A stretch of 64,000 nt of DNA from an uncultured Croceivirga sp. (GCA_964601965.1 CAZRPJ010000011.1:221-64220); one strand, 5' to 3'. Shown: positions 18,732 through 22,922, numbered from the stretch's first letter. Made by a program: numbers and translations. Notes: a model not told the origin generated them from the sequence alone.

Positions 18732-19616
18732 ATGAAAAAACTAAAACGAGAAGACGTCAAGCAAGAAGTGTTTGATCTCTATGATGATTATGCACATAAT
18801 AAATTACAGCGAAGGGAATTTATTGAGCGACTTTCAGTCTACGCTGTAGGTGGTATCACAGTGGCTTCTTTAATGAGTTTTATGATGCCAGATTATGTGA
18901 ACACACTGCTGGTAGATCCTAATGATCCTGAGCTAGATTCTAATTTTATTACCTATGCTTCTCCAAAAGGAGGAGGAGAAATAAAAGGATTACTATCTAA
19001 ACCCAAGAATGCCACCGGAAAATTGGGCGGGATTGTGGTAGTACACGAAAATCGCGGACTCAATCCTTATGTAGAAGATACCGCTAGACGCGCCGCACTT
19101 GACGGTTTTATAACCCTCGCTCCTGATGCTTTAAGCCCGCTCGGAGGATATCCTGGCAATGATGATGAGGGACGAGCCATGCAACGTAAACGGGACCGTA
19201 ATGAAATGTTAGAAGATTTTATTGCGGCTTTTGAATATTTAAAAAACCACCCTGATTGTTCTGGAAAAATTGGCGTTGTAGGCTTTTGTTTTGGCGGATG
19301 GATCTCTAATATGATGGCGGTGAAAGTACCAGATTTGGCTGCAGCAGTCCCTTTTTATGGAGGGCAACCAAAAGAAAATATCGATAAGATTAATGCACCC
19401 TTGATGCTTCAGTTCGCTGGTTTAGATGAACGTGTAAATGCGGGTTGGCCAGCTTACGAAGCGGCTTTAAAAGAAAACAATAAGGAATATGAAGCTTATG
19501 TTTATCCAGATGTAAATCATGGTTTTCATAATACCTCAACTCCTAGGTATAATAAGGAAGCAGCGGAGCTAGCTTGGAGTAGAACTGTTTCATTCTTTAA
19601 GAAGCATTTAGGATAA
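18732..19616 (+). CDS. Dienelactone hydrolase family protein (YghX-like)
   Basis: VHENRGLN, GFCFGG nucleophile elbow, HGFHN. Confidence 0.9.
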   Translation: MKKLKREDVKQEVFDLYDDYAHNKLQRREFIERLSVYAVGGITVASLMSFMMPDYVNTLLVDPNDPELDSNFITYASPKGGGEIKGLLSKPKNATGKLGGIVVVHENRGLNPYVEDTARRAALDGFITLAPDALSPLGGYPGNDDEGRAMQRKRDRNEMLEDFIAAFEYLKNHPDCSGKIGVVGFCFGGWISNMMAVKVPDLAAAVPFYGGQPKENIDKINAPLMLQFAGLDERVNAGWPAYEAALKENNKEYEAYVYPDVNHGFHNTSTPRYNKEAAELAWSRTVSFFKKHLG

Positions 19617-21013
19617 TGTCAAAGTTAAATCGTAGAAAGTTTCTCCGTAAAACCTCCCTGGCAACGGCTGCCTTGGGAAGTATATCTTGGACAAAGCCAC
19701 CGATTTCTTTTAAACCAACGCGCCTTTCTGGAGCCACGTATATGGGCGATTTTGCCGCACCAAAAATTGATACCATTCGCGCGGCATTTATTGGAGTGGG
19801 TGCTAGGGGAGGAGACCATTTGAAATTCTTTGCGGCCTTGCCAAATACCGAGGTAGTGGCCATATCAGACCTCTATGAAGATTTGGTAAAACAAAAAGAA
19901 GGATGGGTAAAGGAATTAAATCAAGAAGGAAGACATACTGATATTAAATTGTACTGGGGCGCCGAAAACAGATGGCAAACCATGCTAAAAGAGGTGCAGC
20001 CCGATGTGGTTTTTATAGCTACCAACTGGGAGAATCACGCACCAATGGCGATCGCCGCCATGGAAAATGGGGCGCATGCGTTTGTTGAAGTACCAATAGC
20101 CGTTACAATCCAAGAAATGTGGGATCTGGTAGATACTTCAGAGCGTACCAAGAAGCATTGTATGATGCTTGAAAATGTGAATTATAGTAGGGATGAGTTA
20201 ATGTTCCTGAATATGTGTAGGCAGGGTGTCATTGGTGAAATCTTGCACGGTGAAGCAGCCTATATTCATGAATTAAGATGGCAAATGGAAGAGCAGGAAC
20301 GTGGCACTGGTTCTTGGCGAACCTATCATTATGCCAAACGCAATGGTAACTTATATCCCACCCATGGTTTGGGCCCTGTTGCGCAATACATGAGCTTGGG
20401 GAGAACCGAAGATACATTTAGTAGCTTGGTATCTTTTTCTACGCAATCCAAAGGGCGTAAAATGTACGCTCAAAAGAAGTATCCTGAATCTCATAAATGG
20501 AATCAACTTAGTTTTAAAGGAGGTGATTTAAACACCTCCATCATAAAAACACATTGGGGCAAAACAATTATGGTACAATGGGACGAAACCAGTCCTAGAC
20601 CTTATTCGCGCCTTAATTTAGTACAAGGTACCCAAGGGGTATTGGCTGGATTTCCAACCCGCGTGGCACTGGAAGGGGGTGTAGAAGGTATAACAACCGA
20701 TCATCATTCCTGGGTACAAGGAGATCAATTACAAGCGCTTTATGAGAAATATGATCATCCTTTGTACAAAAGACTCAATCAAGCGGCAAAAGGAAGTGGA
20801 CATGGAGGGATGGATGGTATTATGGTTTACAGAATTGTTGAGTGCCTGCAAAAAGGACTTCCACTAGATCAAAATGTGTACGAAGGCTGCTTTTGGAGTT
20901 CTGTGGCGCCTTTAAGTGAGCGCTCTGTGGCAGCTGGGGGTGCTCCGCAACCTTTTCCAGATTTTACAAGAGGCAACTGGAAGGATACACAACCGCTCGC
21001 TATTATTTCCTAG
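19616..21013 (+). CDS. GH109 NAD+-dependent glycosidase (alpha-N-acetylgalactosaminidase-like, Gfo/Idh/MocA fold), Tat-exported
   Basis: NRRKFL twin-arginine signal, IGVGARG Rossmann motif, EVP, NLYPTHGLGP, GHGGMD catalytic His motif. Confidence 0.85.
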   Translation: MSKLNRRKFLRKTSLATAALGSISWTKPPISFKPTRLSGATYMGDFAAPKIDTIRAAFIGVGARGGDHLKFFAALPNTEVVAISDLYEDLVKQKEGWVKELNQEGRHTDIKLYWGAENRWQTMLKEVQPDVVFIATNWENHAPMAIAAMENGAHAFVEVPIAVTIQEMWDLVDTSERTKKHCMMLENVNYSRDELMFLNMCRQGVIGEILHGEAAYIHELRWQMEEQERGTGSWRTYHYAKRNGNLYPTHGLGPVAQYMSLGRTEDTFSSLVSFSTQSKGRKMYAQKKYPESHKWNQLSFKGGDLNTSIIKTHWGKTIMVQWDETSPRPYSRLNLVQGTQGVLAGFPTRVALEGGVEGITTDHHSWVQGDQLQALYEKYDHPLYKRLNQAAKGSGHGGMDGIMVYRIVECLQKGLPLDQNVYEGCFWSSVAPLSERSVAAGGAPQPFPDFTRGNWKDTQPLAIIS

Positions 21014-21016
21014 ACT

Positions 21017-22087
21017 ATGATTAAAATACAAGTTCCTGCAAGGATTTGTTTTTTTGGAGATCATCAAGATTATCTGGGATTACCGGTTATCGCTGGCACC
21101 ATTGATCGTTATATTCGGCTGAAGGCTACACCAATTACTGGTTCTAATTTTCAATTATTTCTGGCGGATTTAGGAACTCATCGTACTATTCCATTGAATA
21201 GTATCCCAAAGAAAATTGAACAAAGTGATTTTATGAGCGCTGCCTTAGCAATTGGAACACGTAATGGAATGGAGTGGCAGCAAGGGTATAAAATAGAAAT
21301 CACAGGTGACATTCCTATCAATGCGGGTTTGTCTAGCTCTTCTGCATTAACAGTAGCATGGATCCGATTTCTGATTGAAGCACAGCACGGTAATAGGTCT
21401 TTTACCGATGCCCAAATAGGTCATTGGGCCTATGAAGCTGAGGTCCTTTTCTTTAAAAGCCCTGGTGGACTTATGGACCAATACACCATTGCACAGCAAG
21501 GAGTGTTGTATATAGAAACCGATAAGGGTATTACAAGACGCCTTAATGGAAGTTTTGGGACGTTAGTAGTGGCAGAATCCGGTATTTCAAAAAAAACGCT
21601 AGAAGTTCTCAAAAATGCCAGAGCCTATCAAGAGGCGGCCATTTCAGAAATAAAAAGGTCCCATCCTCACTTTAAAATTCAGGAAATAACCTCTGAAGAT
21701 TACAATCGCTATAAACCGTTAGTGAGCGAAAGGTATCATAATCATTGGTATGCTGCAGCATACAATTATGGGATTACAATGGCAGCAAAGCAATTACTTC
21801 AGTCAGAAAGTCCGGATATTGACGAAATAGGGAGACTAATGAATGAGCATCAGGAAATTTTAGAGCGATATATTAAAAATACGCCAGATTCAATGATCTT
21901 AATGATGCAAAAGGCAAGGGAGGCAGGAGCTCTAGGAACCAAAATTGTGGGCTCCGGTGGCGGGGGTTGTATGGTGGCAATGACAACACCAATGCAAACA
22001 AAAAATGTAATAAATGCTTTTTTAGAGGCAGGGGCAAAAGATGCTTATGTAGTAGAACTCACATTTCCTTCTAATGAAGAATCATAG
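21017..22087 (+). CDS. GHMP-family sugar kinase (galactokinase-like)
   Basis: PARICFFGDHQDY, PINAGLSSSSA, GLMDQ, KIVGSGGGGC. Confidence 0.88.
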   Translation: MIKIQVPARICFFGDHQDYLGLPVIAGTIDRYIRLKATPITGSNFQLFLADLGTHRTIPLNSIPKKIEQSDFMSAALAIGTRNGMEWQQGYKIEITGDIPINAGLSSSSALTVAWIRFLIEAQHGNRSFTDAQIGHWAYEAEVLFFKSPGGLMDQYTIAQQGVLYIETDKGITRRLNGSFGTLVVAESGISKKTLEVLKNARAYQEAAISEIKRSHPHFKIQEITSEDYNRYKPLVSERYHNHWYAAAYNYGITMAAKQLLQSESPDIDEIGRLMNEHQEILERYIKNTPDSMILMMQKAREAGALGTKIVGSGGGGCMVAMTTPMQTKNVINAFLEAGAKDAYVVELTFPSNEES

Positions 22088-22922
22088 TCTAATTATTATG
22101 GTTGGTGGGGCCTCCTCCCGCATGAAAAATAGTCTGGAAAAAGCAGCTATTAGTCCTTCTCAAAAAGACGCCGCAAAAAAACTTCATAAAAGTCTAATCC
22201 CCTTAGGAGAAGAGCAACGACCACTATTGTATTATTTGCTAAAAAATGCAGCAGCTGCAAATATCAATCGGGTTTATTTAATTACAAGCAAAAAAAATGA
22301 CGCTTTTAAGGACGCACTAAAGGGTTTTATGAAAATGCCCCCCTTTCATTCACTAGAAATAAATTTCGCCGTGCAGCATCTTAAAAAGGGAAGCTATAAA
22401 CCATTAGGTACCGCCGATGCACTGCAGCAGTGCATGGAGCAGTATCCTCAATTAATGAAAGAACATTTTATTGTCTGCAATGGCGATAACCTTTATAGTT
22501 CTGGGGCTTTCTTAGCGCTACAACGAAACCTAGGTGTTGCCAATGGCTTAATTGCTTACGAGGGCGCCTATTTAGGCCATAGTGAGGAAAAACTAGCAAA
22601 ATTTGCGCTGTTAGATTTTAACAAAGAAGGATTTCTTACCGATATACTAGAAAAGCCCAACACTACTTTATGGCAAGCCTACAAAAAAAGGCACAAGGCA
22701 CTTTGGATTAGTATGAACATTTTTTGTTTTTACGGAGAAGCGATCTATCCGTTTTTGGTCAATTGCGAACTAAATCCTCAACGAAACGAAAAGGAATTAC
22801 CCATGGCGGTTAGAAACATGATGAAAAGCAATAGGCATCCCATTCGTTGCATACAAAGAGCAGAAAAAATTCCGGATCTAACGGCAGCTCAAGACATTTT
22901 GACGTTTGACCCCAATGCATAA
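22074..22922 (+). CDS. Sugar-phosphate nucleotidyltransferase
   Basis: GGASSRMK, KPLGTADAL, CNGDNLY. Overlaps the kinase gene. Confidence 0.85.
   Translation: MKNHSLIIMVGGASSRMKNSLEKAAISPSQKDAAKKLHKSLIPLGEEQRPLLYYLLKNAAAANINRVYLITSKKNDAFKDALKGFMKMPPFHSLEINFAVQHLKKGSYKPLGTADALQQCMEQYPQLMKEHFIVCNGDNLYSSGAFLALQRNLGVANGLIAYEGAYLGHSEEKLAKFALLDFNKEGFLTDILEKPNTTLWQAYKKRHKALWISMNIFCFYGEAIYPFLVNCELNPQRNEKELPMAVRNMMKSNRHPIRCIQRAEKIPDLTAAQDILTFDPNA

Follow-up and report, generated by a model that had tools for sequence, protein, structure and literature searches.

A putative GalNAc salvage operon with a galactokinase-like kinase and a dedicated nucleotidyltransferase in Croceivirga and related Bacteroidota

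Gene content of the locus

The window studied here is a stretch of 64,000 nucleotides from an uncultured Croceivirga sp. (GCA_964601965.1 CAZRPJ010000011.1:221-64220). It contains a GH109 glycosidase gene directly followed by genes for a kinase and a nucleotidyltransferase (NT), with two further genes upstream and a short hairpin element downstream:

17836-18720, + strand: metallo-beta-lactamase-fold protein with a signal peptide (PF00753, 1.3e-14)
18732-19616, + strand: YghX-like dienelactone hydrolase with an N-terminal YqhI-like segment (PF01738, 4e-47)
19616-21013, + strand: Tat-signal NAD-dependent GH109 glycosidase of the AmGH109A type, 465 aa (PDB 6T2B, 548 bits)
21017-22087, + strand: galactokinase-like GHMP kinase of an uncharacterised Bacteroidota subfamily, 356 aa (GHMP N and C domains)
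22074-22922, + strand: divergent single-domain sugar-1-phosphate NT, 282 aa (PF00483, 1.6e-12)
22919-22950, + strand: weak A-tract/hairpin/T-tract element directly 3' of the NT stop (MFE -5.8 kcal/mol)

Direct reading of the sequence confirmed the three coupled genes of the original prediction, including the coordinates and both junctions. The GH109 stop codon (TAG, 21011-21013) is separated by 'act' from the kinase ATG at 21017, a gap of 3 nt, and the NT ATG at 22074 lies within the kinase gene, which ends with TAG at 22085-22087, an overlap of 14 nt. The NT start is backed by the N-termini of 22 homologues. The motifs mentioned earlier were likewise all found: YPTH and GHGG (as SGHGG) in the GH109 protein, GDHQDY (as FFGDHQDY) in the kinase and GGASSRM in the NT.

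Since the YghX-like gene shares 1 nt with the start of the GH109 gene (TAATG), which makes the two translationally coupled, and the metallo-beta-lactamase-fold gene lies only 11 nt further upstream, the transcription unit in this genome probably comprises five genes, the latter probably being the first. Both upstream genes are lineage-specific accessories. The metallo-beta-lactamase-fold gene falls outside the conserved module and precedes it in few relatives (three loci), and the YghX-like gene, the product of which scored 414 bits against NF041440 (below the cut-off of 460), is near the module in some 7 of 80 loci. The hairpin element (z = -3.3 relative to shuffled sequences) was not called by a consensus terminator scan; the operon probably ends at this element.

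The genes surrounding the operon in the window are housekeeping genes (valS, psd, cdsA, ftsH). The absence of SusC/D, originally noted for the neighbourhood, extends to the entire 64-kb window, in which neither a TonB-dependent receptor nor a SusD-like ORF was found; nor did a SusC/D pair recur in the related loci, so that the adjacent SusC/SusD genes that define a PUL are lacking.

Properties of the three proteins

The GH109 protein aligns over residues 34-465 with AmGH109A of Akkermansia (PDB 6T2B, 548 bits) and matches NagA (PDB 2IXA) with 266 bits. It consists of an N-terminal Gfo/Idh/MocA NAD-binding Rossmann domain (PF01408, 54 bits) and a C-terminal GH109_C domain (PF21252, 193.8 bits, cut-off 27, 2e-57). 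The segments 'sGHGGmd' and 'nGNLYPTHGLGP', including the histidine of the G-H-G-G loop, are conserved in the alignment to AmGH109A; for the role of the G-G-H-G-G loop in GH109, Teze et al. 2020 is reportedly the source. Domains, full-length similarity and motifs together place the protein in GH109, and the Tat signal model TIGR01409 exceeds its cut-off (18.2 versus 16.7 bits), in line with the Tat-exported GH109 that had been proposed. From its sequence, we predict that the enzyme is a periplasmic alpha (possibly also beta) N-acetylgalactosaminidase.

The second gene had been described as galactokinase-like, and this description was borne out by its domains (GHMP_kinases_N, PF00288, 51 bits; GHMP_kinases_C, PF08544, 46 bits), its fold and its catalytic residues. 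GHMP motifs II (P-x-x-x-G-L-S-S-S-A) and III (G-S-G-G-G-G-C) are present, which places the protein in the GHMP superfamily, with PINAGLSSSSAL and GSGGGGC unchanged across 18 homologues. The AF2 model (pLDDT 88) gave the galactokinase of P. furiosus as the top Foldseek match (1S4E, TM 0.84), and the best structural matches were galactokinases with bound galactose. In a profile alignment, residues R9, D15, H16, D18 and D154 correspond to Arg36, Glu42, His43, Asp45 and Asp183 of L. lactis GalK (1PIE), and the catalytic Arg and Asp of the galactokinases are thus retained. D18 is invariant and aligns with Asp45 in the sugar-binding motif of 1PIE, a residue that, judging from GalK structures, presumably reads the axial O4. 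Compared with the GEHxDY motif of GalK, the Glu-to-Asp and Thr-to-Gln changes in GDHQDY are invariant. The original prediction took the deviation from GEHTDY to imply a specificity other than galactose; the changes are suggestive in this respect, but they do not constitute evidence of specificity.

Three known kinase types were considered and rejected. The protein is not a canonical galactokinase, as it reaches 88 bits with TIGR00131 (cut-off 226.65) and 20.6 with PF10509 (cut-off 23.1) and carries GDHQDY; it is not an animal-type GALK2, as only its residues 4-156 align to 2A2C (42 bits as a single sequence, 71 bits as a profile); and it is not an APH-fold kinase of the NahK/BT4240 type, as it has no match to PF01636.

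The third gene encodes an NT, as had been stated, with an NTP_transferase domain (PF00483, 47.9 bits, cut-off 21.2) and an RmlA-like fold. The AF2 model (pLDDT 93) matched GalU, RmlA, the N-domain of GlmU and AGPase in Foldseek (TM 0.68-0.70, 14-18% identity), and a comparison of homologues showed G12, R16, K39, Q101, G112-T-A-D115, D138 and E193-K-P to be invariant. The domain, the N-terminal loop with the lysine that follows it and the fold assign the protein to the sugar-1-phosphate NTs of the RmlA/GalU/GlmU-N type; its loop reads GGASSRM, not GxGTRL, and none of the curated equivalog models was reached.

Linkage, phyletic pattern and an alternative module

Linkage of the GH109, kinase and NT genes is far beyond chance. 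The original prediction held that rare co-occurrence of the three would count against it, and the opposite was found: among 80 kinase-centred loci of close relatives the NT lies directly 3' of the kinase in 76, 65 of these loci include a GH109 gene, with variable flanks, and all 27 kinase-positive genera among the 201 genera of Flavobacteriaceae surveyed contain GH109 (P = 3e-10; GH109 occurs in 97 genera), in 23 of them at no more than 4 kb from the kinase. The linked GH109 proteins belong to two subfamilies, Akkermansia-like (60-81% identity) or NagA-like (35-42%), and the genes occur head-to-tail, divergently or in the order kinase-NT-GH109.

The pairing of kinase and NT is kept across the Bacteroidota, with the NT following the kinase in 16 of 20 distant loci. 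Of these distant loci, 10/20 encode an SSS symporter, 3 an MFS transporter and 4 GH109. The earlier observation that no transporter lies nearby therefore holds for the Croceivirga locus, but it is limited to this lineage. Further neighbours are GH123, GH20, GH35, LacZ-type GH2, a GalE/TviC-like epimerase (adjoining the pair in locus L121), a NagC-like ROK regulator and a NagB-like deaminase; some clusters include a DUF5009 (HGSNAT-like) gene. Outside the Flavobacteriaceae, 10 of the 22 kinase-positive genomes lack GH109, and for that reason these genomes may draw on another source of the sugar or even handle a different sugar.

A homologue of NahK (188 bits to PDB 4OCU) was found in 63 of the 201 genera, but never together with the GHMP kinase in one genome (the probability of zero overlap among GH109-positive genera is 4.7e-16). 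One or the other kinase is present in 87 of the 97 genera with GH109 and in 3 of the 104 without (odds ratio 293). In a sample of GH109-positive genomes from the whole phylum the two overlap once, against 7.5 expected (P = 7e-5). The NahK homologue is accompanied by a different NT in 16/16 loci (196 bits to PDB 3PNN, 20% identity to the NT of the window) and adjoins GH109 in 6 of the 20 loci sampled. This module (loci L082-L095 and L133-L148) is likewise a two-gene cassette of kinase and NT tightly tied to GH109, with the same accessory SSS or MFS transporters, but its proteins come from other families (the kinase matches PF01636 and has 188 bits to NahK of B. longum) and the NT precedes the kinase, whereas the kinase comes first in the GHMP module. 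It appears that both modules do the same job. The best reading is that the GHMP kinase and its NT are a non-orthologous replacement of the NahK/3PNN-type pair of most other Flavobacteriaceae with GH109; the Croceivirga genome contains neither NahK nor a 3PNN-type NT.

Proposed route and competing explanations

We consider it likely that GH109 releases GalNAc, that the GHMP kinase converts it to GalNAc-1-P and the NT to NDP-GalNAc (probably UDP-GalNAc), and that the operon thereby replaces the NahK module. The kinase is accordingly predicted to be a GalNAc (HexNAc) 1-kinase and the NT a GalNAc-1-P nucleotidyl (probably uridylyl) transferase, specificities that are assigned wholly by guilt by association. 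By homology to characterised enzymes, the Tat-exported GH109 would act in the periplasm and strip small glycoconjugates of their terminal GalNAc. The sugar would then enter the cytoplasm; the locus encodes no transporter for this step, and the clusters of relatives include an SSS or MFS transporter. Phosphorylation at O1 is suggested by the galactokinase-like fold, the retained catalytic Arg and Asp and the position of the kinase in place of NahK-type kinases; the NT would use an NTP, most likely UTP, to activate GalNAc-1-P. The resulting UDP-GalNAc could serve as such, or the GalE-type epimerase of the genome could convert it to UDP-GlcNAc. The core of the salvage pathway originally proposed is strongly supported by gene context, phyletic pattern and the exclusion of NahK. 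As to its destination, assimilation via UDP-GlcNAc is equally possible as the feeding of surface glycans, because NagB-like, NagC-like and 4-epimerase genes lie beside the pair in relatives. The Aga-type catabolic cluster for GalNAc (AgaS isomerase-deaminase, tagatose-6-P kinase, class II aldolase) was sought in the Croceivirga genome and is absent from it; in other genera, such a cluster adjoins a third GH109 subtype (two loci).

The pair could instead form an Isselbacher-type galactose route, in which a galactokinase and a UDP-galactose pyrophosphorylase replace the missing GalK/GalT and deliver their product to GalE. The Croceivirga genome indeed has a bona fide GalE but no canonical galactokinase, the kinase of the window being its sole TIGR00131 match, and the fold and the galactose-bound structural matches of the kinase point in the same direction. 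We nevertheless regard this as unlikely. A canonical GalK is present elsewhere in 8 of the 26 other kinase-positive genomes, the invariant Glu-to-Asp and Thr-to-Gln changes set the kinase apart from galactokinases, and a galactose route predicts neither the presence of GH109 in every kinase-positive genus of Flavobacteriaceae nor the exclusion of the HexNAc-specific NahK module. The beta-galactosidases (GH35, GH2) that adjoin the pair in L128 and L121 also accompany GalNAc kinases, where they uncap Gal-beta-1,3-GalNAc (PMC11992087), and the GH123, GH20, NagC-like and NagB-like neighbours indicate HexNAc.

Activation of another sugar, such as GlcNAc, GalN, a uronic acid or an uncommon sugar of marine origin, with a neighbouring GH109 that is not GalNAc-specific, seems improbable to the same degree. 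NahK accepts both GlcNAc and GalNAc, GH20 neighbours free both, some clusters hold the DUF5009 gene, and the distant kinase-positive genomes without GH109 would fit as well; moreover, some GH109 enzymes have been speculated to act on alpha-GlcNAc (2026 paper, PMC13750104). All characterised members (NagA, AmGH109A, BT4243) are nevertheless GalNAc-ases, and the enzyme of the window is close to AmGH109A; GH123 is a beta-GalNAc-ase family, and the invariant Asp of the kinase aligned with Asp45 of 1PIE also speaks against this reading. An unrelated biosynthesis (of a capsule or O-antigen precursor), with GH109 adjacent by chance or shared regulation, would agree with the housekeeping, non-PUL neighbourhood and the lack of a linked transporter in the Croceivirga genome, but is very improbable and close to refuted, as the trio stays together while its flanks change, has been rebuilt with two GH109 subfamilies in several gene orders, has no recurrent glycosyltransferase or polysaccharide-export genes beside it in related loci, and shows phyletic-pattern P values of 1e-10 to 1e-41.

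The proposed GalNAc salvage operon follows a familiar logic in variant form and introduces no new principle. In the MurNAc salvage of Pseudomonas and Tannerella, the anomeric amino-sugar kinase AmgK and the small RmlA-like uridylyltransferase MurU bypass de novo synthesis of the UDP-sugar; AmgK has an APH fold, acts on MurNAc and GlcNAc and is not known to be linked to a glycosidase. Animal salvage by GALK2 (PDB 2A2C) and AGX1/UAP1 likewise combines a GHMP anomeric GalNAc kinase with a UDP-HexNAc pyrophosphorylase. GALK2, however, resembles the kinase of the window in the N-terminal half only, the latter being nearer to archaeal galactokinases, and the NT is short and RmlA/GalU-like, not of the UAP1 type; the two pairs probably originated independently. 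The GNB/LNB pathway of Bifidobacterium (NahK, LnpC, LnpD) also leads from GalNAc via GalNAc-1-P and UDP-GalNAc to UDP-GlcNAc, which the epimerase in L121 recalls, but it employs an APH-fold kinase and a GalT-type hexose-1-P uridylyltransferase with UDP-Glc as donor, instead of a GHMP kinase and a pyrophosphorylase-type NT.

The closest bacterial precedent, which the original prediction does not mention, is operon 1 of the B. thetaiotaomicron PUL BT4240-50, which encodes the GalNAc-1-kinase BT4240, the GH2 enzyme BT4241, the MFS transporter BT4242 and the GH109 enzyme BT4243 (PMC11992087). In this member of the Bacteroidota, too, the gene for a periplasmic GH109 alpha-GalNAc-ase shares a transcript with that for a cytoplasmic, GalNAc-specific anomeric kinase. 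BT4240, however, has the APH/NahK fold, and its operon belongs to a SusC/D PUL that includes MFS and GH2, none of which occur in the window; no NT has been described for it, the fate of GalNAc-1-P being left as 'downstream metabolism' (PMC11992087).

Mucins, glycosaminoglycans and many glycans of microbes and algae contain GalNAc as a major sugar, but the metabolism of GalNAc in the Bacteroidota has not been worked out past anomeric phosphorylation, where the 2025 study of B. thetaiotaomicron ends. The next step suggested by the GHMP operon and its NahK-based counterpart is a dedicated GalNAc-1-P NT, and the distribution of the two modules (27 versus 63 genera, never both) is a clean natural experiment. 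It is an evenly balanced proposition that the two unrelated, interchangeable and mutually exclusive cassettes constitute a general, undescribed route of GalNAc assimilation in Bacteroidota with GH109, in which a dedicated pyrophosphorylase leads from GalNAc-1-P via UDP-GalNAc to the UDP-GlcNAc pool. If the NT step predicted for the two modules is confirmed, this would assign a function to the orphan crystal structure 3PNN, supply annotations for thousands of genes of marine Bacteroidota listed as 'GHMP kinase / mevalonate kinase family' or 'nucleotidyltransferase', and provide new enzymes for one-pot synthesis of UDP-GalNAc and its analogues. The general route, if true, would fill the step after the BT4240 kinase and add a new bacterial family of GHMP GalNAc-1-kinases and two new families of UDP-GalNAc pyrophosphorylases.

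Organisation of the locus

The GH109 glycosidase, the GHMP kinase and the nucleotidyltransferase (NT) are encoded by three co-directional ORFs that match the originally predicted positions exactly, and both of the predicted junctions, a 3-nt gap followed by a 14-nt overlap, could be read in the sequence. The start codon of the NT gene agrees with 22 homologues, whose N-termini are conserved. The region contains the following features (window coordinates):

15437-17740, minus strand: GH3 glycosidase with a lipoprotein-like signal, just upstream of the transcription unit
within 17836-19616, plus strand: metallo-beta-lactamase-fold gene with a signal peptide, ending 11 nt before the hydrolase gene
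18732-19616, plus strand: YghX-like dienelactone hydrolase, overlapping the GH109 start codon (TAATG)
19616-21013, plus strand: GH109, 465 aa
21017-22087, plus strand: GHMP kinase, 356 aa
22074-22922, plus strand: NT, 282 aa
23105-25058: histidine kinase/response regulator pair, between the NT gene and the AGMO-like gene
25086-26348: fatty-acid-hydroxylase/AGMO-like membrane protein

Since the hydrolase gene overlaps the GH109 start and is itself closely preceded by the metallo-beta-lactamase-fold gene, the transcription unit probably starts upstream of GH109. The putative operon status of the trio is read from the gene overlaps and the conserved gene order. A weak A-tract/hairpin/T-tract (-5.8 kcal/mol, z = -3.3) is found 3' of the NT stop codon. 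A scan for sigma-70 promoters and terminators, which does not model Bacteroidota promoters, yielded sites that were no commoner than in shuffled sequence. The trio is surrounded by housekeeping genes, with valS on the upstream side and psd, cdsA and ftsH on the downstream side, and SusC/D genes are absent from the whole 64 kb window.

Several of the flanking genes recur in related loci (numbered L001-L148). A few close relatives (L010, L034 and L045) also have the metallo-beta-lactamase-fold and hydrolase genes 5' of the trio, and a dienelactone hydrolase gene is found 3' of the NT gene in L002 and L004; one possibility is that this pair (17836-19616), which is translationally coupled to GH109, de-esterifies a decorated GalNAc glycoside. 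The AGMO-like gene directly follows the NT gene in 28 loci of the Muricauda/Flagellimonas/Croceitalea group (among L002-L045), which is probably plain synteny, and in the window and L001 the histidine kinase/response regulator genes are inserted between the two. The GH3 gene is common only to L034 among 80 related loci (62% identity) and is outside the conserved module.

Linkage of the trio and the alternative NahK module

Relatives were gathered by a degenerate-pattern scan and kinase alignment, with one genome per species. More than 570 were returned, of which the best 80 loci, nearly all from Flavobacteriaceae, were analysed by tblastn and ORF clustering. In these best 80 the NT gene lies immediately 3' of the kinase gene in 76 and a GH109 gene is present in 65; the trio alone constitutes the constant block, its flanks varying over at least six contexts. 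The GH109 partner is mostly Akkermansia-like (60-81% identity), but in 11 loci it is a NagA-like protein with 35-42% identity to the window GH109 and about 290 bits to PF21252. The arrangement also varies, from head-to-tail to divergent (L066, L069, L073 and L075) and to kinase-NT-GH109 (L053). Because the linkage outlasts both subfamily replacement and rearrangement, it indicates that the three genes are functionally coupled.

The family was sampled with one genome for each of 201 Flavobacteriaceae genera. The GHMP kinase was found in 27 and GH109 in 97 of these, and the predicted co-occurrence of the trio held: all 27 kinase-positive genomes contain GH109 (hypergeometric P = 3e-10, genomes counted as independent), in 23 cases within 4 kb of the kinase.

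Inspection of 20 GH109 loci in kinase-negative genomes revealed, in six genera, a NagA-like GH109 that divergently adjoins an APH-fold kinase and another NTP_transferase. This kinase is homologous over its full length to NahK, the N-acetylhexosamine 1-kinase of B. longum (188 bits to PDB 4OCU/4WH1), and its NT partner scores 196 bits to the orphan structure 3PNN and shares only 20% identity with the window NT. NahK is present in 63 of the 201 genera, none of which has the GHMP kinase. The 97 GH109-positive genera divide into 27 with the GHMP kinase, 60 with NahK, none with both and 10 with neither; the 104 GH109-negative genera have no GHMP kinase and three times NahK. The lack of overlap given GH109 is significant when genomes are counted as independent and phylogeny is left uncorrected (P = 4.7e-16), and the presence of either kinase is strongly associated with GH109 across the 201 genera (odds ratio 293, P = 4e-41, phylogeny uncorrected). 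The phylum was sampled with 401 genomes, in which 66 of the 68 with NahK and 12 of the 22 with the GHMP kinase also have GH109; both kinases occur together in one genome, against 7.5 expected among those with GH109 (P = 7e-5, phylogeny uncorrected).

The 3PNN-type NT, which occurs among L082-L095 and L133-L148, adjoins NahK in 16 out of 16 further loci, which suggests that 3PNN (titled 'conserved domain protein') is a HexNAc-1-P nucleotidyltransferase. MFS or SSS (sodium:solute symporter) transporters lie beside NahK in five of these loci. In two genera (L099 and L101) a further GH109 subtype, the third, scores lower against PF21252 (about 150 bits) and is found beside a complete Aga-type GalNAc catabolic cluster; this comprises a DeoR regulator, an amidohydrolase, a class II aldolase, AgaS and two PfkB kinases, and includes tagatose-6-P kinase. 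Flavobacteriaceae therefore link GH109 to three alternative GalNAc routes. In L088 and L089 an Akkermansia-like GH109 adjoins a second Gfo/Idh/MocA oxidoreductase with a Tat signal, together with one or two PF06439 3-keto-disaccharide hydrolase genes, which is the kit of the oxidative glycoside 3-dehydrogenase deglycosylation route.

Assignment of the three gene products

The proposal that gene 1 encodes a Tat-exported GH109 was borne out. The protein matches PDB 6T2B of Akkermansia ('Glycosyl hydrolase family 109 protein 2') with 548 bits over residues 34-465 and Elizabethkingia NagA (2IXA) with 266 bits; it has a Rossmann and a GH109_C domain and a Tat signal above cut-off, and it keeps the YPTHG and G-H-G-G segments. 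By its sequence it is a bona fide GH109, and homology predicts a periplasmic NAD-dependent GalNAc-ase.

The kinase falls between the models for galactokinase and for mevalonate kinase, and its scores stay below every curated cut-off (TIGR00131: 88 bits, cut-off 227; galactose-binding signature: 20.6, cut-off 23.1). The closest folds to its AlphaFold model (pLDDT 88) are galactokinases, P. furiosus 1S4E (TM 0.84) followed by human GALK1. When the kinase is aligned by profile to GalK of L. lactis (1PIE), R9, D15, H16, D18 and D154 correspond to Arg36, Glu42, His43, Asp45 and Asp183, so that the catalytic pair of anomeric kinases is retained; the sugar motif GDHQDY is invariant across 18 homologues. 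That the protein might be the organism's ordinary galactokinase would agree with the absence of a canonical GalK in a search of its own genome. However, 8 of the 26 other kinase-positive genomes do have a canonical GalK elsewhere, so that the kinase is not simply the galactokinase of the cell, and the GH109/NahK phyletic pattern also speaks against this reading, which we therefore down-weight. The mevalonate kinase identity given by NCBIfam and source names is rejected, both by the GalK-type R...G-[DE]-H-x-D-Y motif with the catalytic Asp and by the fold (TM 0.71 at most to mevalonate kinases). A few kinase copies are interrupted, such as one with a single in-frame TAA (G091:C14:24917-25963, in another numbered genome) and one, between SSS and NT in L117 (about 7900-9000), that no longer gives a full ORF; either module decay or errors in sequencing could explain them.

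The NT matches PF00483 (1.6e-12). It was placed by fold search because a sequence search of the PDB returned only weak ADP-Glc pyrophosphorylase matches. With TM 0.68-0.70 at 14-18% identity, GalU, RmlA, the GlmU N-domain and AGPase are the folds matched by its model (pLDDT 93), and G12, R16, K39, Q101, GTAD (112-115), D138 and EKP (193-195) do not vary. It is a sugar-1-phosphate nucleotidyltransferase, though a very divergent one.

Partners in distant loci and the proposed GalNAc route

A distant set of 20 loci, with 31-40% identity, spans at least nine families; the kinase-NT order is kept in 16 of them and GH109 is present in four. An SSS lies inside the cluster in 10 (e.g. GH109-SSS-kinase-NT in L123 and SSS-kinase-NT-GH109 in L130), and three have an MFS transporter there. 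Other partners are a GH123 of the beta-GalNAc-ase family (1507 bits) immediately upstream in L120, a GH20 hexosaminidase (L125), GH35 and LacZ-type beta-galactosidases (L128 and L121), a NagC-like ROK regulator (L116) and, in L113, a LacI regulator together with a fusion of NagB-like deaminase and deacetylase. All of these fit a HexNAc, specifically a GalNAc, route, as does a GalE/TviC-like 4-epimerase whose gene immediately follows that of the NT in L121 and which favours a UDP-sugar as the NT product. Directly upstream of SSS-kinase-NT in L116 (10795-13437) and L119 (3231-5885) lies a gene for an 880-aa protein with only a sub-threshold GH31 TIM-barrel match and no match in PDB or NCBIfam searches, which may represent a family of GalNAc-releasing glycosidases that is yet to be described. 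A membrane protein of the DUF5009 type, a relative of heparan-alpha-glucosaminide N-acetyltransferase, is encoded between NT and GH109 in L118 (5826-6974) and beside the pair in L125 (9973-11094); a 38% identical copy adjoins an SSS-like gene on another contig of the window's own genome (C13:12737-13813). Periplasmic N-acetylation of GalN/GlcN residues is a possible function of this protein.

The own genome has a single copy each of GH109, the kinase and the NT, and a bona fide GalE (402 bits); searches of it found no NahK, 3PNN-type NT or AgaS cluster, and nothing closely orthologous to the SSS transporter of the related clusters. In the proposed mechanism GH109 would release GalNAc in the periplasm, as homology predicts, and the free sugar, once imported, would probably receive a phosphate at O1 from the GHMP kinase, after which the NT would turn GalNAc-1-P into an NDP-sugar. 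The nucleotide is probably UTP, and the product may be used directly by GalNAc transferases or be epimerised to UDP-GlcNAc. The original prediction of a GH109-kinase-NT route for GalNAc appears largely right on this strong comparative evidence.

Among described systems the closest is the B. thetaiotaomicron PUL BT4240-50, in whose operon 1 the GH109 BT4243 is co-transcribed with BT4240, GH2 and MFS genes; BT4240 is a NahK-like kinase that phosphorylates GalNAc at O1 with a 275-fold preference, and the fate of GalNAc-1-P is not stated (PMC11992087). The window operon shares this logic, but with another kinase fold, an explicit next enzyme and no PUL. The pair would work like animal GALK2/AGX1 salvage and the bifidobacterial GNB/LNB pathway, yet belongs to neither of them: the alignment of GALK2 to the window kinase extends only across the N-terminal half, and the NT is pyrophosphorylase-type rather than GalT-type. 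Searches of the literature returned no account of a bacterial GHMP GalNAc kinase, of such an NT family or of such an operon.

In the reading favoured here, the window operon is a GHMP/NT form of the GalNAc-1-kinase module, non-orthologous to the known one. Salvage into surface glycans instead of catabolism, as first proposed, is a possible role. That an Aga pathway and SusC/D are both lacking favours scavenging by the trio. Relatives that link the same pair to NagB-, NagC- and epimerase-type genes show it tied to assimilation elsewhere. The trio makes the unnamed step after GalNAc-1-P testable.
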